The notes: generated from the letters alone by a model not told the origin. A stretch of DNA of 64,000 nt from Promethearchaeota archaeon (GCA_016840165.1 JAEOSU010000032.1:74680-138679); one strand, 5' to 3'. Positions 16,820 to 34,914 are shown, counted from the first letter of the stretch. A program made the numbers and translations.

Positions 16820-18136
16820 TTAAGTTATTTTTTCAATCTTATTGATAAAATAAATATCTACTTTTTTAATATCACTTATGCTTTTAAGTTTTTTATCTAC
16901 AAGGTAGTAGAAATCTTTAATCGAGCTAATTTTTATATTTATTAATAAATCATGATAACCAATTAAAGCATGTATAGCAACAATCCCATAATTTTTTAAT
17001 ATTTTAACGGGTAATAACCCCATCGAACCTTTTCTTAAGGTAATTAATAAATAAGCATTTACCATATTTTTAACTTCATGGGCATAACGTAAAATTATGG
17101 AGATCACTATCAGAAAGATGAATATTATCAGAAGCTCAAAAGGAAAGAATTCACTAACTAGAATTACTGACAAGATGATTGAACCCATCGGATCTATCAG
17201 ATTTAAGATACTACTCCACTGGCTATAAGTTAGATTCAATGATTTCCAATTTACATTCGCAAGGTATATGAGTAAATAAGGAATGATGGTCGAGAAAATA
17301 ATGAGATAAATGATTTCCCATCGTTCAAGATATAAGAAGATATTTGTAAATTCATTAAAAAATAAGATAATTTCAAGCTTTAAATCACTAAAAATCGGTA
17401 AGAAATTTAAGACCATTAAAAAGGGTATCATTAGTAAAGTTCCAATAAGAAATGATAAAGACATTTTAATTAAGAATCGTGGAATTTTGTAATATTTATT
17501 TTCATTAATGCTGGTTAACTCCAATTTGGAATATGAATCCTTATTAATGCCTACATAAAGAAATGATATCGAAACACTAAATAAGATAAGATAAACAAAT
17601 CCATTAAGAGAAATTGGTTCACCATGAAGTTGAGCACTTTGATATGAGACAAATAAAATTATTAAAATTGCAAAAAACATCAAAGCAATATATAAGGCTT
17701 TAAAAACATCGAATTTTTCAAAATTTCGACCTGCTTCATATATAGCAATGATAATTACGCTTAATAAGAAACCAATCATCGTAAATGAAATTGACGTGAC
17801 CTTTAATGTGAGAAAAAAGAAGACAAGATTGAGAATAACTCCGCAAAATCCAATTAAAATATAATAGTGATAATTTCGTATATTGTTGAATCTTCTATTC
17901 TTATGCCTAATATTTTCAAACAGGAGTTTGATAGAAATTTTTGCATTATTGGTTAAATGATTATTTATTAGAGTAAACAAAATCGCAATAAATAATAGAA
18001 ATGAGCCCGAGACAGTAAATCGAATAAAAATTATCATAAATACGGAAATCTCGGAGACCAAATCAGAAACTAAAACAGGAATAAAACTCCATAATAGATT
18101 TGCAACAACTATGTTGATTACATACTTGTTCTGCAT
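16820..18136 (-). CDS. DMT/EamA-like transporter fused to a C-terminal Lrp/AsnC RAM domain
   Basis: ANLLWS...IFIRF and STIIPY...NLIDPMGSIILSVILVSE (EamA repeats, about 10 TM). The last 81 aa (MVNAYLLI...ALIGYHDLLINI...) follow the RAM pattern. Confidence 0.75.
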   Translation of the reverse strand: MQNKYVINIVVANLLWSFIPVLVSDLVSEISVFMIIFIRFTVSGSFLLFIAILFTLINNHLTNNAKISIKLLFENIRHKNRRFNNIRNYHYYILIGFCGVILNLVFFFLTLKVTSISFTMIGFLLSVIIIAIYEAGRNFEKFDVFKALYIALMFFAILIILFVSYQSAQLHGEPISLNGFVYLILFSVSISFLYVGINKDSYSKLELTSINENKYYKIPRFLIKMSLSFLIGTLLMIPFLMVLNFLPIFSDLKLEIILFFNEFTNIFLYLERWEIIYLIIFSTIIPYLLIYLANVNWKSLNLTYSQWSSILNLIDPMGSIILSVILVSEFFPFELLIIFIFLIVISIILRYAHEVKNMVNAYLLITLRKGSMGLLPVKILKNYGIVAIHALIGYHDLLINIKISSIKDFYYLVDKKLKSISDIKKVDIYFINKIEKIT

Positions 18137-18371: not shown

Positions 18372-19631
18372 ATGCCAAGTTCAAAAGATTTTATTGATAT
18401 GGATCATGAGTATTGTGCTCATAATTATCATCCCATACCCGTTGTTATTAGTAAAGCTGAAGGGGTTTGGGTATATGATCCAGAAGGTAATAAATATTTA
18501 GACTGCTTATCAGCATACTCAAGTCAGAATACGGGACATTGTCATCCCGAAATTATTAATGCATTGAAAGAACAAGCTGATAAGGTCACACTTACATCTC
18601 GTGCATTTCATAATGATATGATGGGCCCGTTTTTGAAAAAGCTCTGTGATATTGTTGGACCACATGTTAATGATCCAAATAATTCAGGAATCATGAGTAT
18701 TCCAATGAATACGGGAACAGAAGCAGTAGAAACTGGATTAAAAGTCTGCCGTGCATGGGGATATATAAAGAAGAAAATTCCTAAAGACGAAGCAAAAATA
18801 ATCATCTGTAGAAATAACTTTCATGGAAGAACGATAACTATAGTAGGTTTTAGTACAGATATTTCTGCAGTACGCTATTATGGAAATTTTGGTCCTTATA
18901 CCCCTGGGTTCGTAATAATACCCTATGGAGATGCTGATATCTTAGAAAATACTATTTTAGAATTGGGTCCTGAAAAAGTTGCGGGATTCTTATTCGAGCC
19001 TATTCAAGGAGAGGCGGGAGTAAATGTTCCTCCAGAAGGATATGTAAAAAAAATCCGAGAAATTTGTACCAAATATAATGTCTTAATGTTAGCTGACGAG
19101 ATTCAAACTGGTTTTGGCAGAACTGGTGAGTTATTTGCTTGCGATCATGAAAATGTGAAACCTGATATGTTACTTTTAGGCAAAGCTCTTGGTGGAGGTG
19201 TTTATCCTGTCTCGGCAATTGTGACAACTAAAGATATTGTTGGACCAGACGTAATCAAACCTGGAACACACGGATCCACTTTTGGGGGAAACCCACTTGC
19301 ATCAGCAGTTGCTATGAAATCACTTGATATTCATATTGATGATCACCTTGCCGAAAGAGCGAAAAGAAGAGGGGGATACTTCATTGAAGGGCTTAGAAAG
19401 ATCGCATCGAAAAATACTATCCTCCCTATCAAAGAAATACGTGGTAAAGGATTATTAATGGCAATTGAATTTACAACAGATGCGAGGCATATTGTAGAGA
19501 TGTTGAAAGATAAAGGAATTTTAGCTAAGGATACCCATTCCACCACTATACGTTTTGCTCCACCTTTAATAATTACAAAAGAACAAGTGGATTGGGCTCT
19601 ACAAATTATTGAAGCAGTACTTGTAAAATAA
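18372..19631 (+). CDS. rocD: Ornithine--oxo-acid aminotransferase
   Basis: AHNYHPIPVV, LSAYS, MNTGTEAVET, FHGRT, EPIQGEAG, LGKALGGG, HGSTFGGNP. Confidence 0.92.
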   Translation: MPSSKDFIDMDHEYCAHNYHPIPVVISKAEGVWVYDPEGNKYLDCLSAYSSQNTGHCHPEIINALKEQADKVTLTSRAFHNDMMGPFLKKLCDIVGPHVNDPNNSGIMSIPMNTGTEAVETGLKVCRAWGYIKKKIPKDEAKIIICRNNFHGRTITIVGFSTDISAVRYYGNFGPYTPGFVIIPYGDADILENTILELGPEKVAGFLFEPIQGEAGVNVPPEGYVKKIREICTKYNVLMLADEIQTGFGRTGELFACDHENVKPDMLLLGKALGGGVYPVSAIVTTKDIVGPDVIKPGTHGSTFGGNPLASAVAMKSLDIHIDDHLAERAKRRGGYFIEGLRKIASKNTILPIKEIRGKGLLMAIEFTTDARHIVEMLKDKGILAKDTHSTTIRFAPPLIITKEQVDWALQIIEAVLVK

Positions 19632-19703: not shown

Positions 19704-22235
19704 TTACATATAAAGATTTAATACTGATTCAGCAACTTTCATAACATCCCAATAATTGTAAAGCATGGGTTTGTATGTCCAAGTTTCATATAAAGCAAGT
19801 TGATCGTATGCATGGTTATATTCTCCTAAATAATTAAGAAATCCGCTTTGACCTGGTGGAATAACATTCACTGCATGAGGTAACGCGAAAAGGTTTCTCC
19901 AATCATAATAGTTCCATACAATCATTTCTGCTATTTGATTGTAAGTACCACGGTTCATATAATGCATTACCGGCCTAGGTAGGGCTCCAATTTGGTCAGG
20001 AATCCATTTAATGACAGGAGTAAGCCAGGTAGACATATCTGGCCCAAGATTTTCCGTTAAATTACCAATAGTCCATTTGAGCACTCGGCAAATGACCTCA
20101 TCTCGGTCTTCTCCATTAAGATAATCATAATTCAATGGTAACTTAGAAGCTGAGCCGTCAAAGACGTGAATTATCGTACTTGGCCACACTCTTGCATATT
20201 CTCGGTGTATAGGTCCAACTTCAGCATATGTCGGAAGATCATCTTCAAACACTTCTTCAAATATTCTATCGTACCAATCGTCAAAGATTGTTAAACCTGT
20301 GTCGTCATAAGTAGCATCGACAGCAGGCCACATAGGATCTATATAGTCATTATAATGGTGATCCCAAGCCTCCAAATAGTCAATTACTTCACTTGGAATA
20401 GTTGGATCTGTTTTAGCGGCATCCACTACGAAATCTAAGAGATTCATTCCGGGAATGTGATTATATCCGGCGTCTCTGACAATTCTATTCATATCTTCGA
20501 AAGTAATATCATTATCTGCAGCTAAAAGTTCCATTATTATTCCAACTCGATGACCTTGACCCCAACCAGCATCAGATTCTCCAAAAGGCCAATTTGTAAC
20601 AGGCTTATTATTCCAATTAGCAAGATAACCCTGTGAAGGATTGTAGCATTTTGGCATTTCTTTAACGCCAGTAACACCAAGCCACTCTTCTTCTCCAGTA
20701 CCCCATAATGGTAACCTGTCATCAATCATTCTACCATTCTTTCCAGTAGTAGGTTTTATTGGCCATTTACCTGAATGAAAATATGCAATATTTCCGTCCC
20801 TATCAATCCAATAGAAATTATGGGCAGCATGTACTTTTCCAGCTGCAACATACATGTCCCATGCATCTGTACTTTGTTGGAAAAGAGACCATCCTTCTTC
20901 AGCTGCAAGTTCATCCTTGTAATAAGGAGTTTTCATCGTAAAACAAAGATTGTTATCAAGATCCCATCCAATTATCGGGCCATGAATAGTTCGATAAATA
21001 TCTCTATCTTCATAGGTTAATTTTAAAGGACCATAAAATCTTTCTGTTCTTTTTTCCATGTCAACCCATTCACCATTATACCTATATTGATATTGATTAT
21101 CTGGATTGAGAACCTCTATGTAGGTATCCATGTTATCTGAGACTCCAGTAGTTGAGGTCCATGCGCCCCATTTACTTACACCAATTAGAATACTTGGAGC
21201 ATGAGGCATCATCATCCCAACAGCATCGATTCCTGCACCATGTAAACCAACTTCAAGAACAATCTGGGGGATAGATTGACCCATTTGTGGACCACCTTGT
21301 AGAAGAGGATTTCCATTTGTGGCTTTAAATGGACTTACCATAAACGCATTACTACCAAATTTAGTAGGTAAACCCAACGATTCAAACAAATGAGTCTGTC
21401 CCATCTTCATTTCTTCATACTCACTAGATACTGTTCCTAAGCTTGGAAGATCAGAGCCACAAACAAAATCCATCGAATAAGAACTAGAAAATTCAGGCCA
21501 ACTGTCGTATTCAGGAGGAATAGTCACTTCTGCTCCAGGATCATTCTGTGGGAAATGATCATTGAACATTGCCCATCCAAATTCATCTCCATACTTATCT
21601 TGTAAAGCTTCTAGGGCAGCAGCATATGAGAGTTCGTCACCCCCACAACCACCGAATCTCCAAGCCATCATTACCACTATTGCAACACAATCTTCAATCG
21701 TAAAAGGCTCAAGAGGTAGCCCAAATGCTAGATATTCGACTGGCATCATAGAGGGATCCCCTGAAGCAAGTTTCGTTAACGCTTGTGAGATGTAAAGATT
21801 TATACCATCAACATATGCAAGCATCATTTCTTTTAGTTTTGCACTGGCTCTATGAGGTACCCAATTATCAAAAATTTCCCTTAATTCTTCTTTACTATAC
21901 GCCATACTTCTAATATTATAATCAACATCTATGCTAGCAAGGCCAAATTCAGCAAGACTTCCATATCCTTGCCTGCGATATAAATCTGCTTGCCATAACC
22001 TATCCTGAGCCATCGCATACCCACATCCATAGGCTAAACCCTCTTTGGTTCCTGCGTAAATATGTGGAACACCATAATTATCTCGGACAATAGTGATTTT
22101 ATTACCGTAAAACCAAAAACTACTCTCAGCTTCATTATTACTAGAGTCAATACTAAATGGAATCGTTATAACTGCAGGGAGTGTGGTTATTAAAAATACT
22201 AGTGATATTAACACTACCAATAGTTTTTTCTTCAT
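19704..22235 (-). CDS. Secreted penicillin acylase family (S45) Ntn-hydrolase
   Basis: Signal peptide MKKKLLVVL..., IVRDNYGVPHI, AQDRLWQ, G|SNAF autocleavage Ser, NWNNKP, PPGQSG. Confidence 0.88.
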   Translation of the reverse strand: MKKKLLVVLISLVFLITTLPAVITIPFSIDSSNNEAESSFWFYGNKITIVRDNYGVPHIYAGTKEGLAYGCGYAMAQDRLWQADLYRRQGYGSLAEFGLASIDVDYNIRSMAYSKEELREIFDNWVPHRASAKLKEMMLAYVDGINLYISQALTKLASGDPSMMPVEYLAFGLPLEPFTIEDCVAIVVMMAWRFGGCGGDELSYAAALEALQDKYGDEFGWAMFNDHFPQNDPGAEVTIPPEYDSWPEFSSSYSMDFVCGSDLPSLGTVSSEYEEMKMGQTHLFESLGLPTKFGSNAFMVSPFKATNGNPLLQGGPQMGQSIPQIVLEVGLHGAGIDAVGMMMPHAPSILIGVSKWGAWTSTTGVSDNMDTYIEVLNPDNQYQYRYNGEWVDMEKRTERFYGPLKLTYEDRDIYRTIHGPIIGWDLDNNLCFTMKTPYYKDELAAEEGWSLFQQSTDAWDMYVAAGKVHAAHNFYWIDRDGNIAYFHSGKWPIKPTTGKNGRMIDDRLPLWGTGEEEWLGVTGVKEMPKCYNPSQGYLANWNNKPVTNWPFGESDAGWGQGHRVGIIMELLAADNDITFEDMNRIVRDAGYNHIPGMNLLDFVVDAAKTDPTIPSEVIDYLEAWDHHYNDYIDPMWPAVDATYDDTGLTIFDDWYDRIFEEVFEDDLPTYAEVGPIHREYARVWPSTIIHVFDGSASKLPLNYDYLNGEDRDEVICRVLKWTIGNLTENLGPDMSTWLTPVIKWIPDQIGALPRPVMHYMNRGTYNQIAEMIVWNYYDWRNLFALPHAVNVIPPGQSGFLNYLGEYNHAYDQLALYETWTYKPMLYNYWDVMKVAESVLNLYM

Positions 22236-22474: not shown

Positions 22475-23386
22475 CTATTTAACATAGAAGTGGGTTCCTG
22501 CTTTCTCTTCTAAAGCATCCTTAATTTTTTCAATAGAAGTTATAATAGCTCTTTTCCCTCCCTTTTCTAAGAAGTTAATTACAGCTTCCACTTTAGGTCC
22601 CATACTTCCTGGTGGGAAATGTCCTTCATTTAAATATTTTTTAGCTTCAGATATAGAAACTCTTTCTAAAAATCTCTGATTTGGCTTTCCATAATGAAGT
22701 GCAACCTTTTCTACATCTGTTGCGATTAATAAAATATCTGCTCCAACTTGCTCCCCTAACTTTGAACTCGCAAGATCTTTATCAATAACTGCTTCTACAC
22801 CAGATAAGCGTTTTCCTTCTTTTATAACTGGTATACCCCCTCCACCACAAGCAATAACAATCCATCCTCCTAGCTCCATCAACCGCTTTATTTCTCGCCA
22901 TTGATAAATTTTTTTTGGTTTTGGAGAGGGAACAACTCTACGCCATCCTTTCGCTGTTTGAACATATCCTGGTTTAGGCTCATCATATGCAGGTCCTATA
23001 GGTTTTGTTGGATTATGGAACGCGGGATCTTGAGGATCAACTTTCACATAGGTGAGAACAGTAATAAAAAGTCTTTCTTCATCTAATCCTATTCTCATTA
23101 ACTCTTCATCTAGCGTTGACTCAATCATGTATCCAATTTGACCTTGAGTTTCTGCAACCAAAACTTGTAATGGTCTTTTAGAAACCTCAGAAGTAGCCTC
23201 TTGTTGCATTAAAAGCATCCCAACTTGAGGCCCATTCCCATGTGTAATAATAAGTGAGAAATCTTTAGAAAGCTCCGCTAATTGACTAATTGGGACTCTT
23301 AGATTCCTGAATTGCTCTTCTGTAGTACCTTCTTCTCCAAATCTAATTAATGCATTTCCACCTAGCGCAACAATTAAGATCGTCAT
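22475..23386 (-). CDS. arcC: Carbamate kinase
   Basis: VALGGNAL, THGNGPQVG, PTKPIG, WRRVVPSP, GGGGIPV, AVIDKD, GSMGPK. Confidence 0.95.
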   Translation of the reverse strand: MTILIVALGGNALIRFGEEGTTEEQFRNLRVPISQLAELSKDFSLIITHGNGPQVGMLLMQQEATSEVSKRPLQVLVAETQGQIGYMIESTLDEELMRIGLDEERLFITVLTYVKVDPQDPAFHNPTKPIGPAYDEPKPGYVQTAKGWRRVVPSPKPKKIYQWREIKRLMELGGWIVIACGGGGIPVIKEGKRLSGVEAVIDKDLASSKLGEQVGADILLIATDVEKVALHYGKPNQRFLERVSISEAKKYLNEGHFPPGSMGPKVEAVINFLEKGGKRAIITSIEKIKDALEEKAGTHFYVK

Positions 23387-23509
23387 TCAATTAGTCCTTT
23401 ATGTTTCAAAATGATTATGCGTTAAAATAAAAAATAATAATATTTTACTTATTATTTAAAATTTTTCTCTAAACTCAATTCTTTTTGCTTAATCAGTATA
23501 ATTTTGCTA

Positions 23510-25012
23510 CTATTTTGTGGTTGGTTCTTTTACTACCAAGCTAGAAGCAATATTTTTAAAATTTTCGGCTATTTCTTCATAATCAGCATCATATTCAAAC
23601 CACCAGAGGTCCTTTTCCTTATATTGATCGATATTGATATGTAATGGGCGTGTCGCTTCAATAAATCCAAATTTACCATGAGTTCTACCAATACCCGAAT
23701 TTTTAACTCCGCCCCAAGGAGTTGCAGCAAGCGCAAAGGTATATACAACCTCATTTATCATTACTGTACCCGTTTCTAATTCTTTAGCAATTTTTTTACC
23801 AAATTCAATATTATTTGTCCACACACTTGACACTAATCCATATTGATTATCATTTACCATTTCAATGACATTATCTTTGCTTTTAAATTTTAGAACAACA
23901 AGTACAGGACCAAAAATTTCTTCTTGAACAATGTGCATATTGGTGTCCTGTGCTTCTATTATCGTTGGCTCGTAAAAATATCCCTTCAAATTAGGATTTC
24001 TTCTCCCCCCGATTAAAACCTTGCCTCCTTCTTTAATTCCTACTTGAACCATTTTATCTACCCAGTTTAGTTGTTCTTCATTGATCATCGCACCTACATC
24101 TACGTTAGACTTTGTCGGGATATCTTGCTTTAATTTGCTAGTTAAATTTACGAGATTTTCAAGAAAATCATCGTAGATATCCTCATGAAGAAAGAGTCTC
24201 TTAACCGCAGCACATACTTGTCCGGAGTTCGTAAAAGCGCCCCAACGAGCAGCTAATACAGTGCGCTCAAGATTTGCATCGGGAAATACAACCATCGCTG
24301 CCTTTCCTCCGAGTTCAAGAGCAACCTCAGTAAGCGTATCCGCTCCTCGTTGCATTATTTTTTTTCCAGTTGCGGTGCTTCCAGTAAATATAATTTTATC
24401 TGCATTATCTATTAAAGGATTACCAATCTTTGAACCATTTCCATATACAGTTTGTACTAATCCTTTTGGTAAATCAATCGCATTAAATATTTCTTGGATT
24501 TTTTCACCTACAAGCGCGGTTTCTGATGAAGGTTTAAATACGACACTATTCCCTGCCATCAGACTCTGAACTATCTGTTGGAAAGGTATTGTAAAAGGAT
24601 AATTATAAGGTCCAATCACACATATTACTCCAATTGGTTTCCTTAAAATAAGGCTTCGTTTATCTAACGATTCATAGAATCCTAAAGAAATTTCCTCCTC
24701 TGATCCTAAGAAGTCAACTACATTAGTATAATAGTAAAATGTGGAATCTACCACACCATAAACTTCATTAACGAATGCTTCTGAGGGAGGCTTGCCTACC
24801 TCTTTAGAAATCAATAACGCAATTTCATCAAATTGTTTAGAAATTACTTCATTAACCTTCACTACGCGTTTTGCCCTTTCTTCCAGTGGAACTTTCGCCC
24901 AATTCTTTTGAGCCACTCGAGCATCTTTAAAAATCTGATCCAGCTTTTCTATTGGAGTTTCTTCCACTTCTCCGATTAACTCAAGAGTTGCTGGATTTAT
25001 ACTTTTAATCAT
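23510..25012 (-). CDS. NAD(P)-dependent aldehyde dehydrogenase
   Basis: PYNYP, FKPSS, FTGSTATG, LELGGK, NSGQVC (catalytic Cys), EEIFGP. Confidence 0.9.
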   Translation of the reverse strand: MIKSINPATLELIGEVEETPIEKLDQIFKDARVAQKNWAKVPLEERAKRVVKVNEVISKQFDEIALLISKEVGKPPSEAFVNEVYGVVDSTFYYYTNVVDFLGSEEEISLGFYESLDKRSLILRKPIGVICVIGPYNYPFTIPFQQIVQSLMAGNSVVFKPSSETALVGEKIQEIFNAIDLPKGLVQTVYGNGSKIGNPLIDNADKIIFTGSTATGKKIMQRGADTLTEVALELGGKAAMVVFPDANLERTVLAARWGAFTNSGQVCAAVKRLFLHEDIYDDFLENLVNLTSKLKQDIPTKSNVDVGAMINEEQLNWVDKMVQVGIKEGGKVLIGGRRNPNLKGYFYEPTIIEAQDTNMHIVQEEIFGPVLVVLKFKSKDNVIEMVNDNQYGLVSSVWTNNIEFGKKIAKELETGTVMINEVVYTFALAATPWGGVKNSGIGRTHGKFGFIEATRPLHINIDQYKEKDLWWFEYDADYEEIAENFKNIASSLVVKEPTTK

Positions 25013-25135
25013 TATAATTTAAACACGACTAAAATGTTATTTAAACATTTTTTACATGTTTTATAATTGGGTTTTAACTTAGATGAGATAACCCTTAAGT
25101 TTATGATTAAAAAAATTATAATTAATAAGTAGAAT

Positions 25136-26068
25136 TCAAAACTTTCCCCGTAAAAACAACATGATTGCTTTTTGGATGTGTAAACGGTTTTCCGCTTGGT
25201 CAAAGACTATTGATTGGGGTCCATCAATTACTTCTGCTGTTTGTTCAAACCCTCGCATTGCGGGTAAACAGTTCATGAAAATTGCATCCGTGTTTGCTGC
25301 CTCCATAACTGAGGAAGTAACTTGATATGGCATAAATGCTTTTTTCCGCGCGTCTTCTTGTTCCTTGGGAATGCCATAGCTCATCCAACTGTCTGTATAT
25401 ATAATATCCGCTCCCTTTGCAGCATCTAGTGTATCATGTATAACTTCTACTTCAGCATCGGTTTTTTTTGATAGCTCTGCAACCTCACTTAGCACTTCTA
25501 GTTCTGGCGTATATTCTGGAGCCTCAGGGCAAGCTACATATATTTTCCACCCAAATAAGGCGCACATTCGCATTAAATCATAAGTGACATTATTATGAGC
25601 ATCACCGAAATATGCCAATTTTTTTCGTTCGAGATTTCCTTTCTTTTCCTTAATCGTTTGGAAATCTCCTAAAATTTGACAGGGATGGGCGTAATCATCT
25701 AGCATATTAATTACTGGTACACTTGAATATTTGGCAAGATCCCAAATATCTTGCCGCTTATATACCCGAGCTGCAATAATATTTACGAACCGTGAAGCAA
25801 CTTTTGCGGTGTCTGAAATATTCTCTTTTACTCCTAAAGGTGAATCTTTAATTGAGTAAAAGATGGCATGACCTCCTAATTGTTGCATACCTGTTTCAAA
25901 TGAAATGCGTGTTCGAAGGGAAGGCTTTTCAAAAAGCATAAGAAGGGTTTCATGCTTAAGTGATTTATAATATTTCCCTGGATATTTTTTTATCTCCATT
26001 GCTTTGTTTATAATAAGTTCGCATTCCGCTCTTGAAAGATCTGAAATCTTATGTAAATGTCTAACCAT
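25136..26068 (-). CDS. arcB: Ornithine carbamoyltransferase (catabolic context)
   Basis: KPSLRTR, HPCQ, TDSWMSYG, FMNCLP, QAENR. Confidence 0.9.
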   Translation of the reverse strand: MVRHLHKISDLSRAECELIINKAMEIKKYPGKYYKSLKHETLLMLFEKPSLRTRISFETGMQQLGGHAIFYSIKDSPLGVKENISDTAKVASRFVNIIAARVYKRQDIWDLAKYSSVPVINMLDDYAHPCQILGDFQTIKEKKGNLERKKLAYFGDAHNNVTYDLMRMCALFGWKIYVACPEAPEYTPELEVLSEVAELSKKTDAEVEVIHDTLDAAKGADIIYTDSWMSYGIPKEQEDARKKAFMPYQVTSSVMEAANTDAIFMNCLPAMRGFEQTAEVIDGPQSIVFDQAENRLHIQKAIMLFLRGKF

Positions 26069-26176
26069 ATTTTATCAATTTTTTATTATTTCTAATTACT
26101 ATAAAATAGAAGATCCCTTAAAATTTACTCTGAAACTTCTAGTTTAGGTCATATAATATACAAAAGAAAGTTTCTA

Positions 26177-27931
26177 TTATGACTTATTTGGATTCATATT
26201 TGATTTTTCATAATCTTCTAATTTTTCATTCTTAAGCTGCCTTAAACTATCGAAGTCATAGGTTTCCTCGAAAAATAAATCAAACGGATCTTTAATATCT
26301 TCTAGTATTGGCTTAGAATAAAAATTTTCATACAAAAACGAGCCTTTATCAGTTATATCTATATTGTCTTCTCTGTCTAGTGTTAAAATTCCATTAGCAA
26401 TCATATCTTGGACAACAGCGCTGATCCCACGCTCTTTATAAATATAAAGACCAAAATAAGAAAAGCTTGTATAAACTTCTTCGCTTTTCCTTAAAGAATC
26501 CTGAAACCTTTCGTTTAATTCATTTACAGTAATTTTTGTTGTTAAATTATCATAATAAACTAATAAGATCCATTTAATTATGTATTCTTTAATATTTTCT
26601 TCATATGACATTTGAAACTTTTCAAATTCAAGTTCTTCACCTTGTCCTTTTATAAATTCAACGAATATTTCAATCACTTCTCTGAATATGAAGTAACTGA
26701 TGATTATTGCAATGATTGGGTCAAAATAATACATAAATGGTATTCCCTGGGATCTACCAAATTCAGAGAGTAATGCTCCCAATATTATACCTATAGAAAG
26801 CAAAATATTAACCCTAGAATCAATTGCACTAGCAACTAACGAAGAATTTCTATTCTTTTTTCCAACGAAATTTTTCAACACCCGTAAATAAGTGTTCAAA
26901 AATATAGATACAATGGAAATGATTATTGCTATATATGGGACTTCAATCGGTTCGGGCCCAGTGATTAATGAAATTATTGACTCATAAATGATTGATGAAC
27001 CCGCAAAAATCATTAATAATATTAGAAGAATATTCACAAGCTTTTCTTTTTTAAATCGAATTCCCAAACCTATTAATATTACGGCTAAACAATCGAGGAA
27101 GTTCTCGATCCCTTCTGCTCTTAGTGATTCTGAACTAAATGTACCAATTGATATCTTGAGTATACTAAGTAGAAATAATCCAATGAAAGATCTGATTAAA
27201 ACTCCCTTGCTATTTAAAACTGCGAGATATTTCTTAATTTGAGAATTTAGAGTATCTTTCCATAATTTATATTGCTCTCTACCCTCCTTGCTTAAGTTGA
27301 CTATAAATTTTTCATCTATATCCGCCATTCTAATACCACATAATTGATATATTGAAGATGCGGAAGTTTCTTCATTAAAATAGATTTCTGGTATGAAAAC
27401 ATTAGTAATTCCCCTAATTCGATTTTTTAAACGGATGAATTTCATATTCCCCTCTTTATATAAGTAATGTAAAGCGGCATATTCAACTCTATTAATAGGA
27501 AATAAACTTGATTTTCTTCTATGAAAAGAGACTGCGATGATTCTAATCAAGTGATTAATTGATATAAGCGTGAGAACTATAATTCCTAATAAAAAAATAA
27601 AATTAGTTATAGGACCAAAACCAATATAACTATTGTATCTTAGGTAATAAAAAAGGAAATAAATTTGTACATAGAGAAAGATTATTCCAAATAATATCCA
27701 AGGAATTAATAAATTTCTAACAACTTTCTTAATGTGGAATTGCTTGAAAAAATTATTAATTGCTCTTCTTAAAAACGGGGCAATGAAAAAAACACCAACA
27801 TAAGTAAATATAAAGCTAAACTGAAATGTACCAGTCAGTATTATTTCTATGATCGATGAAATTAAAGAAATTAAAAAATAAGAAACTAATACTATTTTAT
27901 AGTTAAATTTCCATACCCTATTGAGTTTCAT
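26177..27931 (-). CDS. CDF (cation efflux)-like transporter with an extra N-terminal membrane domain and two winged-helix-like domains
   Basis: SESLRAEGIENFLD, SSLVASAIDSRVN, YFDPIIAIIIS. wHTH-like segments end in VNLSKEG and IDITDKG. Confidence 0.7.
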   Translation of the reverse strand: MKLNRVWKFNYKIVLVSYFLISLISSIIEIILTGTFQFSFIFTYVGVFFIAPFLRRAINNFFKQFHIKKVVRNLLIPWILFGIIFLYVQIYFLFYYLRYNSYIGFGPITNFIFLLGIIVLTLISINHLIRIIAVSFHRRKSSLFPINRVEYAALHYLYKEGNMKFIRLKNRIRGITNVFIPEIYFNEETSASSIYQLCGIRMADIDEKFIVNLSKEGREQYKLWKDTLNSQIKKYLAVLNSKGVLIRSFIGLFLLSILKISIGTFSSESLRAEGIENFLDCLAVILIGLGIRFKKEKLVNILLILLMIFAGSSIIYESIISLITGPEPIEVPYIAIIISIVSIFLNTYLRVLKNFVGKKNRNSSLVASAIDSRVNILLSIGIILGALLSEFGRSQGIPFMYYFDPIIAIIISYFIFREVIEIFVEFIKGQGEELEFEKFQMSYEENIKEYIIKWILLVYYDNLTTKITVNELNERFQDSLRKSEEVYTSFSYFGLYIYKERGISAVVQDMIANGILTLDREDNIDITDKGSFLYENFYSKPILEDIKDPFDLFFEETYDFDSLRQLKNEKLEDYEKSNMNPNKS

Positions 27932-28025
27932 AAGTCATTCATTATTTTGGATTTGCTAATTAAAAATTAATTAAGAGATTCTTAAAAATTATTTCAAATA
28001 CTTTAAAATTGTAAACTTTTGCTGT

Positions 28026-29189
28026 TTACTTCAAAACTTCCTCTCGAGAATAATCTCGATTAAATGAAAGATCTTCTAAAATCTCTTTATCTTGAGTTCT
28101 TAATTTTTCCCTTACAAGACGACTAAGCAACTCTCCCACTGCTGGACCAAGCATGAAACCCTGACCACACATCCCGACTGCGAGAAGAAAGCCTTTTATA
28201 TTATCTATTTCACCAAGAATAGGATTTCCATCAGGAGTCATTGGGTATAATCCTCTCCACGTCCTTCTTACTTTTATATTTTTTAATCGTGGAATCAAGT
28301 TGATCATTCTCTTAGTTATTTGTGGTAAGAATGAACTAGTTTCTCTTCTGTCTACTCCTATAATACTAGGTTCAGGGGTAAGACAGAAAATGATTTTTCC
28401 TTCATTGTTTTGATAAAAGTAGTAGTTTTTAGAATTTCCAAATTTAGGATCTTGTGCCGGGCGTATATCTACTATCATTGGATTAAAAAATTTTTTAACT
28501 GGTTCTGTTATTCCAGCTTCATGAGATTCTGATTGCACATCAACATCTAAATCAACCATTTTTGCTATTGACCTAGCATTTGCACCTGCAGCGTTAATAA
28601 CAAATCGACTACTATAGGTTGCTTTATTTGTTTTTACTCCAACTATCTGATTATTTTTTGTTAGGATATCAATTACGGTCTCATTAAATTTATACTCTGC
28701 CCCATGTTCCCTCGATTTGCGATAAAAGGCGTGTAAAGCTAACAATGGAGAGGCATTTCCATCTTCAGGACTATAGGTTCCGCCCAGTAATCCATTAGAA
28801 TTTATACCAGGAATAATTTCTTCGATCTTTTCTGAATTTACATAATTGATGTTTAAACCATAAGTTTTTTGAGCTTGGACAGTCCTTTTTAGTACATCTT
28901 CATCTTTTTTTGTATATACGACGAAACAATAGCCTCCTTGGCTCCACCAGATATCATCACCATGTTTTTCTTGCCAACTTGAAAAGATTTTTATAGAACG
29001 TTGACATATTTTAATTTTAGCTTTATGAGTATGTGTTGCCCGAATGCCGCCAATTGCATGTTTATTATCACCTTGCGATACAGAAGGAAAGGAATCAATC
29101 ACTAATGTCTTTAATTCTCCTTGTGAGAGCGCTAAGGCAGTGGGTACACCTACACTACCTGCACCGATAATAATTGCGTCATACTCCAC
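28026..29189 (-). CDS. FAD-dependent amino-acid dehydrogenase (sarcosine oxidase beta / dye-linked proline dehydrogenase beta-like)
   Basis: IIGAGSVG, INAAG, RTWRGLYPMTPDGNPILG, GMCGQGFMLGP. Confidence 0.85.
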   Translation of the reverse strand: MEYDAIIIGAGSVGVPTALALSQGELKTLVIDSFPSVSQGDNKHAIGGIRATHTHKAKIKICQRSIKIFSSWQEKHGDDIWWSQGGYCFVVYTKKDEDVLKRTVQAQKTYGLNINYVNSEKIEEIIPGINSNGLLGGTYSPEDGNASPLLALHAFYRKSREHGAEYKFNETVIDILTKNNQIVGVKTNKATYSSRFVINAAGANARSIAKMVDLDVDVQSESHEAGITEPVKKFFNPMIVDIRPAQDPKFGNSKNYYFYQNNEGKIIFCLTPEPSIIGVDRRETSSFLPQITKRMINLIPRLKNIKVRRTWRGLYPMTPDGNPILGEIDNIKGFLLAVGMCGQGFMLGPAVGELLSRLVREKLRTQDKEILEDLSFNRDYSREEVLK

Positions 29190-29191
29190 TC

Positions 29192-31276
29192 TTAAGGCTC
29201 CTCCTTGTTTTTATTCACTTTTGTAAAGATACCCATCGGAACTTCAATAAAAAGGGGACGTTTCGTACCTTCATTAATTTGATCAACAGAAACACCCTCC
29301 TCTCTAAATATACGATTTATTAAAGGTGTACACGTTTTTCCTCCACATGCCCCCATACCTACTTTAGTTAAAGCCTTGAGTTCATTAAAATCTCTAACTC
29401 CGTATCGTATCCATTTCCTAATCTCTCCAACACTTACTCGTTCACAACGGCACACAATAATATCATCATCCGTTCTTTGAGATTGGTAAAGATCGATCGA
29501 TTCGTCATAGGTTGCTTTATCGAGCTTAATAGCAGTCGCTATCTTTGCAATATTTTTTGGCAATTTTACCGAAATAAGTTGAGTTTTTGGGAACTCTTTT
29601 AAAATTCGAGAACGAGAAACAGGGAACTTGCCAAGATCACCATCTTCACTCAACACATACAAATTCTGCCCAACTTCTAACTTTTCATCACTTAATTCTA
29701 AGGGAAAGGTGACAGATGGATTATCTTTGTCCTTTCGATAATCTACTAATGTGACTGCTAAACCCGGACAGACAGCTACACATTTTCCACAACCGATACA
29801 TTCTTTATCCCCCATAAAATAAGGCAATTGGGTTATTTGATCGTCAATAGTCTTTATTTGTTCTTGAGGACATACTGTAGTGCAAGGATTGCATGGAATT
29901 TCTTGAGTACAATGAAAGATCGGCATTACTCCTTCTTCTTGTTTAGGTAGTTCGATCATCTTAGGTGAGGGAGGTTTAGCTTTCATTATCTCTGCTTTTC
30001 TCTCTAAATCGGTTAAATTGAAACCATGTGAATATCCCATCTCATTAAGCATTTTTATTGCCTCAATCTTTCCGGTATATATCGCAGCTGAGGCTTCTGC
30101 GATTTCTTGGGCGTCGCCTGCAACCCATACTTTAAATCCAAATTGTATTGCTTTGGAATAAAATTCATCTACGGGATTTAAACCCACGGCTATTAAAATA
30201 GTATCACAAGAAAATGTTTTTTCTGAACCTGAAATTAAATTTCCCTTATCATCTAACTGACTGATAGTAATAGATTCAACCTTATTCTTTCCATTTGCCG
30301 AAATAATTGTATGTTTTGTTAAGATAGGAACCCCTAAATTTCGCAGTTTATCCTCGTGGACTTTATATCCCCCACATTGGGGTAGTGCTTCAATTAAGCC
30401 TACAACGTGAATTCCTGCCTGAATAGCATGGTAACCGGCAATTAGTCCTACGTTACCTCCTCCTACGATGAAGATTTTTTTAGCACATCTAACAAAATCA
30501 CGATTTACGAGGGTTTGAAAGGCGCCTGCACCATAAACTCCTGGTAAGGTATTTCCTGGAAATACCAACATTTTTTCCCGTGCTCCCGTTGCAACTAAAA
30601 GATACTCGGGCTTAATTAGCATATATTCCATGTTTTCCTTTAAAACTCCTACAATTCCATCGCTAAAAACCGCTATTGCCGTTGATTTTAACCATACCTT
30701 CACAGAAGCCAAATTTCTTACTTCTTCACCGAGTATTTGACCTATTTCTATTCCTCGTTTCCCCGCATAAACATCTTCTTGAGATCCGAAAAATTTATGG
30801 GTTTGAAGAACTAATTTTCCTCCTAAATGATTCTTATCATCAATTAAGAGAGTATCAATATTAAATTCCCCTAATATTTTTGCAGCAGATAATCCAGCTG
30901 GGCCCGCTCCAATAATTAAGACCTTATGTTCAACTAATCGAGGATTTCCCGTTTGTGGATTATTATCAACGTCAGGTAACTCCGGTAAACCATTACAAGG
31001 CTCTATTTTCATTTCCTCTTCAAGGAAAGTCATACAGGCTTTAACTGGGATGCCATTTGCTATCACATTACATTGAGAACATTGTCCGTTAGCACAAAAA
31101 ATTCCTTGATCTGCATTATCCTTAGGATGATGTCCAAAAATTTTTATGTTATTGAGAAATAAGGCAGATGATATAACCATTCCCTCAAAAGCAGTTAACT
31201 TCTCACCATTAAATGTGAATGAAATCTTCTTTCTTTTCGGTATCTCTAAAATTGGGTGCTGGCTTATAGTGTCCAT
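29192..31276 (-). CDS. Fused 2Fe-2S / FAD-NAD oxidoreductase / 2x4Fe-4S ferredoxin / BFD-like protein (proline dehydrogenase or sarcosine oxidase alpha-like)
   Basis: FCANGQCSQC; GAGPAG and GGGNVG; CTQEIPCNPCTTVCP and CIGCGKCVAVCP; VCRCERV...GACGGKTC. Confidence 0.85.
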   Translation of the reverse strand: MDTISQHPILEIPKRKKISFTFNGEKLTAFEGMVISSALFLNNIKIFGHHPKDNADQGIFCANGQCSQCNVIANGIPVKACMTFLEEEMKIEPCNGLPELPDVDNNPQTGNPRLVEHKVLIIGAGPAGLSAAKILGEFNIDTLLIDDKNHLGGKLVLQTHKFFGSQEDVYAGKRGIEIGQILGEEVRNLASVKVWLKSTAIAVFSDGIVGVLKENMEYMLIKPEYLLVATGAREKMLVFPGNTLPGVYGAGAFQTLVNRDFVRCAKKIFIVGGGNVGLIAGYHAIQAGIHVVGLIEALPQCGGYKVHEDKLRNLGVPILTKHTIISANGKNKVESITISQLDDKGNLISGSEKTFSCDTILIAVGLNPVDEFYSKAIQFGFKVWVAGDAQEIAEASAAIYTGKIEAIKMLNEMGYSHGFNLTDLERKAEIMKAKPPSPKMIELPKQEEGVMPIFHCTQEIPCNPCTTVCPQEQIKTIDDQITQLPYFMGDKECIGCGKCVAVCPGLAVTLVDYRKDKDNPSVTFPLELSDEKLEVGQNLYVLSEDGDLGKFPVSRSRILKEFPKTQLISVKLPKNIAKIATAIKLDKATYDESIDLYQSQRTDDDIIVCRCERVSVGEIRKWIRYGVRDFNELKALTKVGMGACGGKTCTPLINRIFREEGVSVDQINEGTKRPLFIEVPMGIFTKVNKNKEEP

Positions 31277-31306
31277 TTACAATCGTTTTATTTTCTTATT
31301 TGAAAA

Positions 31307-33487
31307 TTATTGATATGGAGCGATTATATCAATCATATCATCATAACCCAAATCTAATTCCTTTAATTTTTGAATAGTTGGACAACCATTTTTATTCCAA
31401 CCTCTCTCAAAATACACTGCATCCTGTAATTTTGTATATTGTTTTTCCCGATGTTTTCTTAAAATTTTGATCTTTTCTTCTACGTTTTTATTTGAAATAT
31501 CAAATCCAAGTTCTTTTAATTGGCTATCATATCTTTCAATCCGACTATTATATTCTAAAGGGGTCACTGGTCCCATTGCTCGATAGGGAAAGTTGGAATC
31601 GTGTTCTCTTAACCCCTTCCCTTGTCGGATGTTAAAAATCCTTTGAAGGTTATATACCCGTTCAGACATTTTAATTAAATCATCGGGTGCGGATTGACGA
31701 CCAGTTACCGCCGAAAAATATTTTGCGTACCACTTAACGTGATCGGGTACTTTCGCTCGGACTAACTCACCAGTTTCGGGATCTTTTATTGGATAATCTG
31801 CTTGGCTTTCAGGTTGAATGTCATTCCAAGGTAATTTACAAAGTCCACATAAACTAAACCATGTTCGCCAATACGGAAACCACCGCAATGCTCTTGCCTT
31901 ATCCTCAAATGTAGGTATCGATTGACGGATAACATCCTCAAAAATAAGCCAAGCTTCGTCATGTTGGGGCCCTTTATTTGTAAATCCATAACCACCTTGT
32001 TGAGAAAGAGATTCTTTGGTAACATACTCGGAAAACTCTAATCCTTTATGTTCCATTCCAATGTCTTGCAGAAATTGAGGATCAGCATTGTATTTCTCTA
32101 CGAATAGTTTTTTCATTTCTCTTATTCCTTGACCTGCAATAGCTCCAAAATTCTCGTCTCTCGCCATCTGGTGGATTAATTCTACGGCATCTCGTGCATT
32201 TCCGAAATTTAAATCCAAACCTCCTGTGATATCTTTATTTAAAATTCCCGCTTCAAAACATTCCATGACAAACGCGATCCCCGTCCCTACGGATATGGTA
32301 TCAAGACCGTAAGTATCACAATAAAAATTGACCTCTAATACCCATTTAGGATCCCACACTCCCCAATTAGAGCCTACTCCAGCAATTGTCTCATATTCTG
32401 GACCATCAACAATAATTGATTGCCCTTTAAATGGTCCTGTCATTACTTCATACCCTTCTGAATAATGAGAACAACTAACCGTACAGCCTATCCAACAACC
32501 ATCTGCTCCTTCCTTCCCAGAATATATCTCTTTCCATACATCACGTGCATAAGGTATATCTTTACCGGGAATCTCTTTATGTGCTCCATATCGAAAATTT
32601 TCAGTTGGAAGCAGATCTGCTGCATTCATGATATCTGGCAAATGTCCTGTGCCAACCCTTCTCATTTCGTTCTGTTTGGGATCCAACCTAATTACTTCTT
32701 GCGTATGGATTATACCTACTTTTCGAGCCTCTTCTAAATCTGCTGGATTATTTGAACCAATTGTTGCTTTTGGAGAATGGCACACCAAAGCTTTAATATT
32801 TTTATCTGCAAATACAGTACCAATACCTCCGCGTCCTGCTTGTTTACAAGATGCCCAATCTCTTCCCTTTACAAACCAAGAGAAGTTTAATATCCCCCAT
32901 TTTGTATGTTTCGCAGCTGGACCAGTGCTCACCACTGAAACCCGTTGCTTTTCATTTGGATCCTCAGCATATTTATCAGTTAACTGCTGTGTGAGTTCAT
33001 GGGAATATTGAGAATAATTATCGTCCTGCTCCACGGACTCAATCTGAACTACATGGTTGAGGCCATCTATAAAAATGATAACTTCTTCTTCAGATTTCCC
33101 TTGGATCTCTAAGGCATCAAATCCCGAAAATTTCAGATAGGGACCAAAATATCCTCCTACATTAGAATCAATAATAATCCCTGTTAAAGGAGAAATAGTG
33201 GTCACAATTGACTTTCCAGAACCAGGATAGAAAATACTACCACCTAATGGTCCAGAAGAAATACAGATTTCATTCTCAGGATCATCCCATTTAACTATTC
33301 TATCCTTGGGTAAATTATTCCACATTAACCATAAGTCAAACCCTTTGCCACCGATGAATTTATCTTTCATTTTATCCGATACGGTTTTTATTTGGATGTC
33401 TTTCGTGGTTAAGTTAATATATAAGGTTTGATTAGTATATCCTTTTTGAACTTCATCAAATTGATATTCTTTTCTCGCTAAAATCAT
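31307..33487 (-). CDS. Tungsten aldehyde:ferredoxin oxidoreductase family protein
   Basis: FIGGKG, DSNVGG, AGRGGIG, GCWIGCTVSC, DGPEYET, DTYGLDTIS, GLCKLPW, YFERGW. Confidence 0.88.
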   Translation of the reverse strand: MILARKEYQFDEVQKGYTNQTLYINLTTKDIQIKTVSDKMKDKFIGGKGFDLWLMWNNLPKDRIVKWDDPENEICISSGPLGGSIFYPGSGKSIVTTISPLTGIIIDSNVGGYFGPYLKFSGFDALEIQGKSEEEVIIFIDGLNHVVQIESVEQDDNYSQYSHELTQQLTDKYAEDPNEKQRVSVVSTGPAAKHTKWGILNFSWFVKGRDWASCKQAGRGGIGTVFADKNIKALVCHSPKATIGSNNPADLEEARKVGIIHTQEVIRLDPKQNEMRRVGTGHLPDIMNAADLLPTENFRYGAHKEIPGKDIPYARDVWKEIYSGKEGADGCWIGCTVSCSHYSEGYEVMTGPFKGQSIIVDGPEYETIAGVGSNWGVWDPKWVLEVNFYCDTYGLDTISVGTGIAFVMECFEAGILNKDITGGLDLNFGNARDAVELIHQMARDENFGAIAGQGIREMKKLFVEKYNADPQFLQDIGMEHKGLEFSEYVTKESLSQQGGYGFTNKGPQHDEAWLIFEDVIRQSIPTFEDKARALRWFPYWRTWFSLCGLCKLPWNDIQPESQADYPIKDPETGELVRAKVPDHVKWYAKYFSAVTGRQSAPDDLIKMSERVYNLQRIFNIRQGKGLREHDSNFPYRAMGPVTPLEYNSRIERYDSQLKELGFDISNKNVEEKIKILRKHREKQYTKLQDAVYFERGWNKNGCPTIQKLKELDLGYDDMIDIIAPYQ

Positions 33488-33570
33488 GAAAACACACCAT
33501 TGGTGAGGTATCTTATCCTCACGTTTAATAAAAGGGTTAATAGTATTGAAACCCTCATAAATATAAAAAA

Positions 33571-34914
33571 TTACTTATTAAGGAATTTTTGAATAAAATC
33601 ATCTAATACCTTTTCAATAGTCGGTTCTTTTACCGGCTCAATATCATAAGATACTTTAACAATTGGTTTATTCACATTTACTAACTTTTTCAAATCGATA
33701 GGACTTCCATTTAAAATTATATCCGCTTTTACCTTGTTAAGGGTTTTTTCTAAATCTTCGATCTGCTGATCAGTGTAACCCATTGCTGGCACGATTTCGG
33801 TAATTTGAGGAAATTCCTCATAAACATCTTTCATAGAACCTGCTAAATATGGTCGCGGATCTACAATTTTAGCTCCGGCATTCTTTGCAGCTACATAAGC
33901 GGCGCCTATTGCCATCCCTCCGTGTGTGAGCGTTGGACCATCCTCCACCACGACCACCTTCTTTCCTTTCAGCTTGAGTGGGTCTTCAGCTTTCACCACG
34001 GAATTTGTATATATGCGAATTGCATCCGGATTCAACTCTTGGAGATTCTTTTCGACAATCGCAACATCTTCTGGTTTCGCACTATTCATTTTATTGATAA
34101 CAAAGGCATCTGCATATCGTGTATTGACCTCTCCGGGATGATATTTATTTTCGTGTCCTGGTCTTAAGGGATCAACGACAATAAACAAAAGATCGGTAAT
34201 ATAGAATGAAATTTCATTATTTCCTCCATCAAATATTATGACATCCGCTTCTTTTTCTGCTTCTCTGACAATCTTCTCATAATCTACCCCTGAATAAATA
34301 ACAAGTCCTTGTCGGATATAAGGCTCATACTCCTCACGCTCCTCTATAGTACAATCATATTTATCTAAATCCTCATATTTCTCAAATCGCATAACGTTTT
34401 GCTGAACTAAATCTCCATAGGGCATAGGTTCTCTTATAGCAACTACTTTATATCCCTTCGATTTTAGATATCTGTATACTGCTCTTGATACCTGACTTTT
34501 GCCGCATCCTGTCCGTACCGCACATACTGCAATAACTGGTTTATTTGCTTTTAGTTGCGTAAATCGACCGGAAATGAGACGATAATCAGCACCTGCACTC
34601 AACGCACGAGATGCTTTATGCATAACCTCCTCATGTGAAACATCAGAATAAGCAAAAACAACTTGGTCAACATTATGTAATTTTATTGCTTGTTCTAATG
34701 CTTCCTCTGGTATCATGGGAATTCCTTTTGGGTATAATTTTCCAGCTAATTCAGCAGGAAATTTTCTTTCAACGTCCTCTGTGGTACCAACGTTCTGTTC
34801 ACCTGCGATTGTGAAGGCGACAACCTCGTATTCTTCATTATCTTTAAAGACTGTGTTAAAAACATGGAAATCCATCCCTAAAGCTCCTATAATTATAACC
34901 TTTTTCTTCATCAT
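33571..34914 (-). CDS. arcE: cDPG-synthetase-like P-loop protein, probable arginine synthetase
   Basis: MDFHVFN, AYSDV, AVRTGCGKSQ (P-loop), EPMPYGDL, TIEEREEYEP, DGGNN, VEDGPTLTHGGM, PAMGY. arcB, arcC and rocD are nearby and there is no arcA in the window. Confidence 0.78.
   Translation of the reverse strand: MMKKKVIIIGALGMDFHVFNTVFKDNEEYEVVAFTIAGEQNVGTTEDVERKFPAELAGKLYPKGIPMIPEEALEQAIKLHNVDQVVFAYSDVSHEEVMHKASRALSAGADYRLISGRFTQLKANKPVIAVCAVRTGCGKSQVSRAVYRYLKSKGYKVVAIREPMPYGDLVQQNVMRFEKYEDLDKYDCTIEEREEYEPYIRQGLVIYSGVDYEKIVREAEKEADVIIFDGGNNEISFYITDLLFIVVDPLRPGHENKYHPGEVNTRYADAFVINKMNSAKPEDVAIVEKNLQELNPDAIRIYTNSVVKAEDPLKLKGKKVVVVEDGPTLTHGGMAIGAAYVAAKNAGAKIVDPRPYLAGSMKDVYEEFPQITEIVPAMGYTDQQIEDLEKTLNKVKADIILNGSPIDLKKLVNVNKPIVKVSYDIEPVKEPTIEKVLDDFIQKFLNK

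Follow-up and report, generated by a model that had tools for sequence, protein, structure and literature searches.

The window analysed here, a 64,000-nucleotide stretch of Promethearchaeota archaeon DNA (GCA_016840165.1, JAEOSU010000032.1:74680-138679), carries a gene cluster that probably encodes an arginine synthetase pathway yielding two ATP per arginine, with ornithine passing via RocD to glutamate semialdehyde and glutamate. In this pathway ArcE would convert arginine, ADP and phosphate to citrulline, ATP and ammonia, ornithine carbamoyltransferase (OTC) would convert citrulline and phosphate to ornithine and carbamoyl phosphate, and carbamate kinase (CK) would use the carbamoyl phosphate to form the second ATP. 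RocD would then yield glutamate-5-semialdehyde, in equilibrium with pyrroline-5-carboxylate (P5C), and a conserved enzyme of the AOR family would oxidise the semialdehyde to glutamate with ferredoxin as the acceptor, a step at which an extra aldehyde dehydrogenase (ALDH) may also act. A proline-dehydrogenase-like alpha/beta pair would join proline to the same P5C node. The steps up to the semialdehyde are expected to be reversible, and arginine may also be formed by the module from proline, ornithine or citrulline. An earlier note on this DNA had proposed the double-ATP pathway, which is supported by ArcE orthology, by the absence of arcA and arginase, and by synteny among Asgard archaea; we infer what the enzymes catalyse, that they work in the catabolic direction, and which substrates the AOR-family enzyme, the ALDH and the alpha/beta pair use.

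Genes were called from an ORF listing and from Pfam and NCBIfam profile scans of the window proteins; the assembly totals 3.6 Mb (99.7% complete, 6.3% contamination), and the window corresponds to its contig 9. Eight minus-strand genes were found in the order given by the earlier note (arcE-like, aor, pdhA-like, pdhB-like, CDF, OTC, ALDH, carbamate kinase), and rocD, which had been placed about 3 kb beyond them, lies 2.8 kb from the cluster on the plus strand, convergent with it and separated from it by an amidase-family gene. The beta gene begins 2 bp past the end of the alpha gene. The features are as follows.

33571-34914, minus strand: arcE, ortholog of arginine synthetase (ATP-forming arginine deiminase) of the Asgard sub-clade, 447 aa, no Pfam match
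31307-33487, minus strand: AOR-family tungsten/molybdopterin aldehyde:ferredoxin oxidoreductase (PF01314, PF02730)
29192-31276, minus strand: alpha subunit, proline-dehydrogenase-like fused Fe-S flavoprotein, 694 aa (Fer2_4, Pyr_redox_2, Fer4, Fer2_BFD)
28026-29189, minus strand: beta (catalytic, DAO-family) subunit, proline-dehydrogenase-like (PF01266)
26177-27931, minus strand: CDF-like membrane protein, 584 aa (PF01545 over residues 245-425 only)
25136-26068, minus strand: arcB, OTC (TIGR00658, 350.8 against a cut-off of 280.85)
23510-25012, minus strand: NAD(P)-dependent ALDH (PF00171, 468 bits)
22475-23386, minus strand: arcC, carbamate kinase (TIGR00746, 374.4 against a cut-off of 358.25)
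19704-22235: penicillin-amidase-family gene, between rocD and carbamate kinase
18372-19631, plus strand: rocD, ornithine--oxo-acid aminotransferase (TIGR01885, 523.4 against a cut-off of 378.4)

To our knowledge, ArcE was described only in 2024, and the Thermococcus kodakarensis enzyme is the only one to have been characterised. This enzyme, TK2200, catalyses the reversible reaction of arginine, ADP and phosphate to citrulline, ATP and ammonia, and its authors noted a weak similarity to cyclic 2,3-diphosphoglycerate synthetase (cDPGS), homologs in Lokiarchaeota, and some homologs adjoining arcB/arcC (PMC11032458). A search with ArcE of genomes of the class Thermococci (n=133), which was reached from a Methanofastidiosia locus, found a homolog in 126 of them, the best match being full-length at 56-59% identity and 551-573 bits in 89. 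One of these genomes, G062, has arcE at 1.984 Mb and CK at 1.936 Mb, 47 kb apart, a spacing that fits TK2200 and TK2158; we take this genome to be T. kodakarensis, and its homolog to be TK2200. G062 contains one strong ArcE homolog only, and in pairwise alignment the window protein is 57% identical to it over its full length (522 bits, 440 aligned residues, residues 3-440).

The window protein was compared with cDPGS by phylogeny, one of the checks proposed in the earlier note, for which a grouping with cDPGS would have counted against its reading. In a maximum-likelihood tree of 43 sequences, the split between cDPGS and the ArcE family had 100% SH-aLRT support, with branches about 2.5 long to each side of it, and the Asgard sequences fell within the same sub-clade as TK2200. 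The window protein thus groups with the T. kodakarensis ArcE (57% identity) and apart from cDPGS (24% pairwise identity to a genuine Thermococci paralog), and because it passed this test of phylogeny and identity it is taken as a true ArcE ortholog. It keeps 28 of the 29 family columns that are at least 85% conserved, and has a Walker A motif, RTGCGKS, at residues 134-140. Its closest protein homologs carry the names Promethearchaeota or Lokiarchaeota; no Pfam or NCBIfam family covers it, a chance-level match to a uridine kinase P-loop being the only one returned.

That the 447-aa protein is instead a cDPGS is suggested by database names, since NCBI calls several homologs of 81-88% identity "cyclic 2,3-diphosphoglycerate synthase", and by structure, since cDPGS is the top fold match of its AlphaFold model (pLDDT 91), followed by LpxK 4EHY. 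The model matches give the same cDPGS/LpxK fold relation as published for TK2200; cDPGS (M. fervidus 8ORK/8ORU; 9SXB) shares the two-domain P-loop fold with the window protein and resembles it weakly in sequence. True cDPGS gave bit scores of 27-41 against the window protein, with the solved structure 9sxb at E 1.5e-5 and 27 bits, and M. fervidus cDPGS (8ORK) gave no match to it at E up to 1, whereas a cDPGS reference (the paralog at locus L099) scored 949 bits to 9sxb over all 434 residues and 419 bits to 8ORK/8ORU. The N-terminal motif also differs, being LIDGEHYP in cDPGS and GALGMDFH in the window protein, as do the clade and the gene context, which here is that of arginine metabolism. Where Thermococcales genomes hold both genes, the two are separate paralogs, one matching the query at about 560 bits and the other at about 20: a second, cDPGS-like frame, mostly of 430-460 aa and about 20 bits, was found in 12 of the 133 Thermococci genomes (see loci L097-L105). 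A cDPGS identity was rejected on the long-branched separation of the two clades in the tree, and we consider it almost certainly wrong, as are the names "GTPase" and "cyclic 2,3-diphosphoglycerate synthase" attached to these proteins in databases. The contigs with cDPGS-like second genes in Thermococci include two of 2,010,078 and 1,845,800 bp.

The Asgard members of the ArcE family carry a signature of their own. The N-terminal motif is GALGMDFH in the window protein and GALG[M/Y/F]DFH in the Asgard clade, and GxxGRDFH, with the Arg, in all 104 non-Asgard members aligned, TK2200 included. The motif could be read in 115 of the 120 best matches (P0002-P0120 and the window) and in 11 of the 14 Asgard relatives' loci compared (L106-L119). 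The Arg of GAAGRDFH, otherwise invariant and present in the T. kodakarensis enzyme, is thus replaced in the window protein (R14 to M), and further signatures of the clade at near-invariant positions are H162E, Q38G, W228F and D234E. In cDPGS the N-terminal domain from the partner subunit contributes to the substrate site (PMC10690619), so R14 and the other signature residues might, by analogy, be functionally relevant in Asgard ArcE. One could suppose that the replacements at R14, Q38 and H162 have given the Asgard sub-clade another substrate or another mode of regulation, and that it is no plain arginine synthetase, as R14 is kept throughout the non-Asgard members, the Asgard clade has M, Y or F wherever the motif was located, and four more near-invariant positions differ. 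This we regard as very improbable given the 57% identity to TK2200, the 28 of 29 conserved residues retained, an OTC that fits the OTC model rather than that of putrescine carbamoyltransferase, and the presence of OTC, CK and ornithine aminotransferase as precisely the partners that a route through citrulline and ornithine would have. That the operon partners are unchanged speaks for a conserved ArcE reaction in the Asgard clade. The ArcE of a Hodarchaeota metagenome-assembled genome (L086) has the widespread GAAGRDFH form of the motif and 49% identity to that of the window, so that there are two ArcE lineages among Asgard archaea.

The OTC in the cluster is the single match over the TIGR00658 cut-off genome-wide, and scores 282 against the putrescine carbamoyltransferase model, for which the cut-off is 500. 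Its motif forms are unusual (PSLRTR, SWMSYG, MNCLPA), and all three are common to its best PDB match, 3GRF (E 7e-89), presumably the catabolic OTC of Giardia lamblia, which scores above P. furiosus OTC (1A1S/1PVV). The only carbamate kinase match in the genome is also in the cluster, and the rocD product is a true ornithine aminotransferase by its profile score. A pathway of the agmatine deiminase type was rejected, as the carbamoyltransferase fits the OTC and not the putrescine model and an ornithine aminotransferase is linked.

The earlier note had found no arginine deiminase or arginase in the window, and this holds across the whole 3.6-Mb assembly in PF02274, TIGR01078 and arginase-family searches. 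TIGR01078 gave no match in this genome and none over the cut-off in 41 genomes of the order, a DDAH-like protein of 254 aa was all that PF02274 matched, and the arginase family is represented by a single protein, an agmatinase encoded next to argS. ArgG, ArgH, ArgC and ProA were likewise not found over cut-off in this genome, while carbamoyl phosphate synthetase (CPS) is present, and the end of a contig truncates an OCD-like gene. The gene for the DDAH-like protein (L002, G000:C36:11590-14901) stands between genes for a 3-hydroxyacyl-CoA dehydrogenase and a glycyl-radical enzyme, the latter resembling trans-4-hydroxy-L-proline dehydratase and related enzymes. A fumarate-lyase-superfamily gene at 54204-55607 of the window has a weak ArgH match (72 bits, cut-off 280) and probably encodes adenylosuccinate lyase or a similar enzyme rather than ArgH.

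The arcE loci of 14 Asgard relatives show which neighbours are conserved. The window's genus and one other have arcE-AOR-alpha-beta-OTC-CK with a convergent ornithine aminotransferase gene, and two genera, including two closed genomes of 4.3-4.4 Mb, have a compact same-strand arcE-OTC-CK-ornithine aminotransferase arrangement. These compact operons support the proposal in the earlier note that ornithine is passed on via RocD. AOR directly follows arcE in 12 of the 14 loci; OTC is kept in all 13 that extend far enough past arcE, with CK kept beside it. The alpha subunit is 66-74% identical in relatives and the beta subunit is also kept, while rocD adjoins CK in nine loci, sharing the strand of arcE-OTC-CK in L118 and L119. 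Of the cluster genes listed in the earlier note, arcE, AOR, alpha, beta, OTC and CK are kept in relatives, but the ALDH and the CDF-like gene do not belong to this conserved set. Beside arcE in the 14 Asgard loci neither the ALDH nor the CDF-like gene nor the amidase was found, and these three are inserts specific to the window genome; the CDF-like gene had no match in 80 diverse arcE loci either. Because it was not found beside arcE in any relative compared, the CDF-like protein is probably outside the arginine pathway. Among relatives the gaps DAO-OTC, OTC-CK and CK-ornithine aminotransferase vary from 0.06 to 2.2 kb and hold differing inserts (L107, L116, L117).

The 80 arcE loci just mentioned were obtained from many bacterial and archaeal phyla by an 8-sequence profile search of contigs, Thermococcales being absent from the set. 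Within 6 kb of arcE, and usually directly downstream, lay CK in 34 loci, OTC in 16 and an ornithine aminotransferase gene in 8. In two loci of Neomarinimicrobiota (L036, L045) an L-glutamate gamma-semialdehyde (P5C) dehydrogenase gene is immediately upstream of arcE-CK (TIGR01236, 677 and 674 against a cut-off of 614), and in a locus of Fidelibacterota (L063) a 337-aa piece in the same place scores 548, under that cut-off. Unrelated lineages thus also join ArcE to the step from semialdehyde to glutamate. The two P5C dehydrogenase genes and the L063 piece beside arcE-arcC are at these positions.

L036:4473-5771
L045:4457-5785
L063:3819-4829

It is only from gene position that we infer an AOR-family enzyme (and the ALDH) for the same step in the window. 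The window AOR is about equidistant from the AOR (1AOR, 174 bits) and FOR (1B25, 159 bits) of P. furiosus, and an action of AOR-family enzymes on C4-C6 semialdehydes is an old proposal made for P. furiosus FOR (review, PMC12096430). In the five loci examined of genera g2, g9, g10 and g11, the AOR ortholog (54-65% identity) occurs by itself, with no alpha/beta pair. No NCBIfam equivalog model reached its cut-off for the window ALDH, the scores being 420 against 521 for SSADH, 304 against 648 for NF002852 (GSALDH) and 289 against 660 for TIGR01237; it is possible that this enzyme is a glutamate-semialdehyde dehydrogenase.

The pdhA/pdhB-like label that the earlier note gave to the flavoprotein pair is a fair one, as the closest solved relatives of the two subunits are the two chains of 1Y56, which we take to be the L-proline dehydrogenase of P. 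horikoshii. The beta subunit is a clear relative of that dye-linked enzyme, with 1Y56_B as its best solved relative (E 1.2e-54). The alpha subunit matches SoxA and 1Y56_A (PH1363), the latter at only E 4e-17 and over the N-terminal 270 residues, the flavoprotein part that is common to both; at 694 aa it differs from 1Y56 in its added Fe-S domains, namely 2Fe-2S, 4Fe-4S dicluster and BFD-type domains. The pair probably connects proline to P5C; an opine oxidase was weighed as another possible function.

It is also conceivable that the cluster mainly makes arginine, with proline converted to P5C by the alpha/beta pair, then to ornithine by RocD, to citrulline by OTC with carbamoyl phosphate from CPS or CK, and finally to arginine by ArcE with ATP and ammonia, in place of ArgG and ArgH. 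ArcE is reversible and supports growth of T. kodakarensis on citrulline, and its authors raise a biosynthetic role where ArgG and ArgH are missing, although their published equilibrium constant favours citrulline and ATP (PMC11032458). The distribution of genes can be read in the same direction: in this genome ArgG, ArgH and ArgC were not found and CPS is present, and among the 41 genomes of the order ArcE without ArgG occurs in 25, ArgG without ArcE in 9, both in one and neither in 6. ArcE thus occurs in 26 of the 41; in the window's genus, 17 of the other 24 genomes have it. However, ArgC and ProA mostly accompany ArgG across the order, and the ArcE-positive genomes also lack them, leaving no de novo ornithine route for ArcE to complete. 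Since the ArcE-bearing genomes are without a whole route of this kind, the pattern, which comes from genomes of one order and is not phylogenetically independent evidence, is read as one of prototrophs and amino-acid scavengers rather than a simple replacement of ArgG/ArgH by ArcE. Further against synthesis, carbamate kinase is the gene that marks the catabolic pathway and is found beside arcE more often than any other, P5C dehydrogenase adjoins arcE in other phyla, and an ALDH and an AOR lie inside the cluster. A mainly anabolic cluster therefore appears unlikely. Within the window's genus, both ArcE and ArgG are missing from several near-complete genomes (G140, G142, G155).

Several points nevertheless weigh against the arginine-degrading, two-ATP pathway that we favour. 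The activity of the Asgard ArcE is a prediction from sequence, and its clade is without the otherwise invariant R14 and also has H162 replaced by E and Q38 by G. The 254-aa DDAH-like hydrolase could in principle form citrulline hydrolytically. The window ALDH falls outside the P5C-dehydrogenase type, and glutamate semialdehyde is only a candidate substrate for the AOR. Finally, the lack of ArgG/ArgH, together with the near complementarity of ArcE and ArgG, also fits biosynthesis or salvage.

A more specific extension of the degradative pathway, which we offer tentatively, is a ferredoxin-linked branch in which the AOR oxidises glutamate-5-semialdehyde to glutamate and the Fe-S-rich alpha/beta pair couples proline and P5C to that same pool of electrons. 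Fermentation or dismutation of arginine, ornithine and proline could then do without an NAD-dependent P5C dehydrogenase, and the R14-less Asgard ArcE would be a kinetically or allosterically distinct form of the enzyme.

The closest known system is the T. kodakarensis pathway (ArcE TK2200, ArcB TK0871, ArcC TK2158; PMC11032458, PMC13260591), which has the same three enzymes, no arcA, and the same expected yield of two ATP per arginine, with ornithine going onward to proline and glutamate. In the window the genes form a cluster, but arcE and arcC are 47 kb apart in the genome that we take as T. kodakarensis, and the window cluster, unlike that system, has rocD, an AOR-family gene and genes for a fused proline-dehydrogenase-like pair linked to it. 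Since CPS is present in the window genome, the pathway would not be needed there as a source of carbamoyl phosphate. In the classical arginine deiminase (arcABC) pathway the genes are clustered and OTC and carbamate kinase carry out the same two downstream steps, but the first step in the window pathway would not be hydrolytic; there is no arginine deiminase, and the P-loop enzyme ArcE would store the energy of deimination as ATP.

The pathway itself, its presence in Lokiarchaeota and the clustering with arcB/arcC have already been published (PMC11032458), while our literature search found no paper joining "arginine synthetase" with Asgard. What is new here is that arcE has a conserved link with rocD, AOR and proline-dehydrogenase-like genes, that alternatives are absent genome-wide, that ArcE and ArgG are nearly complementary, and that the Asgard clade has a signature of its own. 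Asgard archaea are the closest prokaryotic relatives of eukaryotes and live by syntrophic amino-acid fermentation. For such a life the one extra ATP per arginine expected from the conserved arcE-arcB-arcC-rocD module would be a large gain, and the ArcE-bearing lineages are without the known routes to arginine and glutamate semialdehyde (ArgG, ArgH, ArgC, ProA). AOR-family enzymes have long been suspected of oxidising semialdehydes derived from amino acids, and the linked AOR and proline-dehydrogenase-like genes offer a concrete candidate for this role that can be tested. Just past rocD, at 16820-18136, the window also encodes an EamA-type transporter with a C-terminal Lrp/AsnC ligand-binding (RAM) domain.

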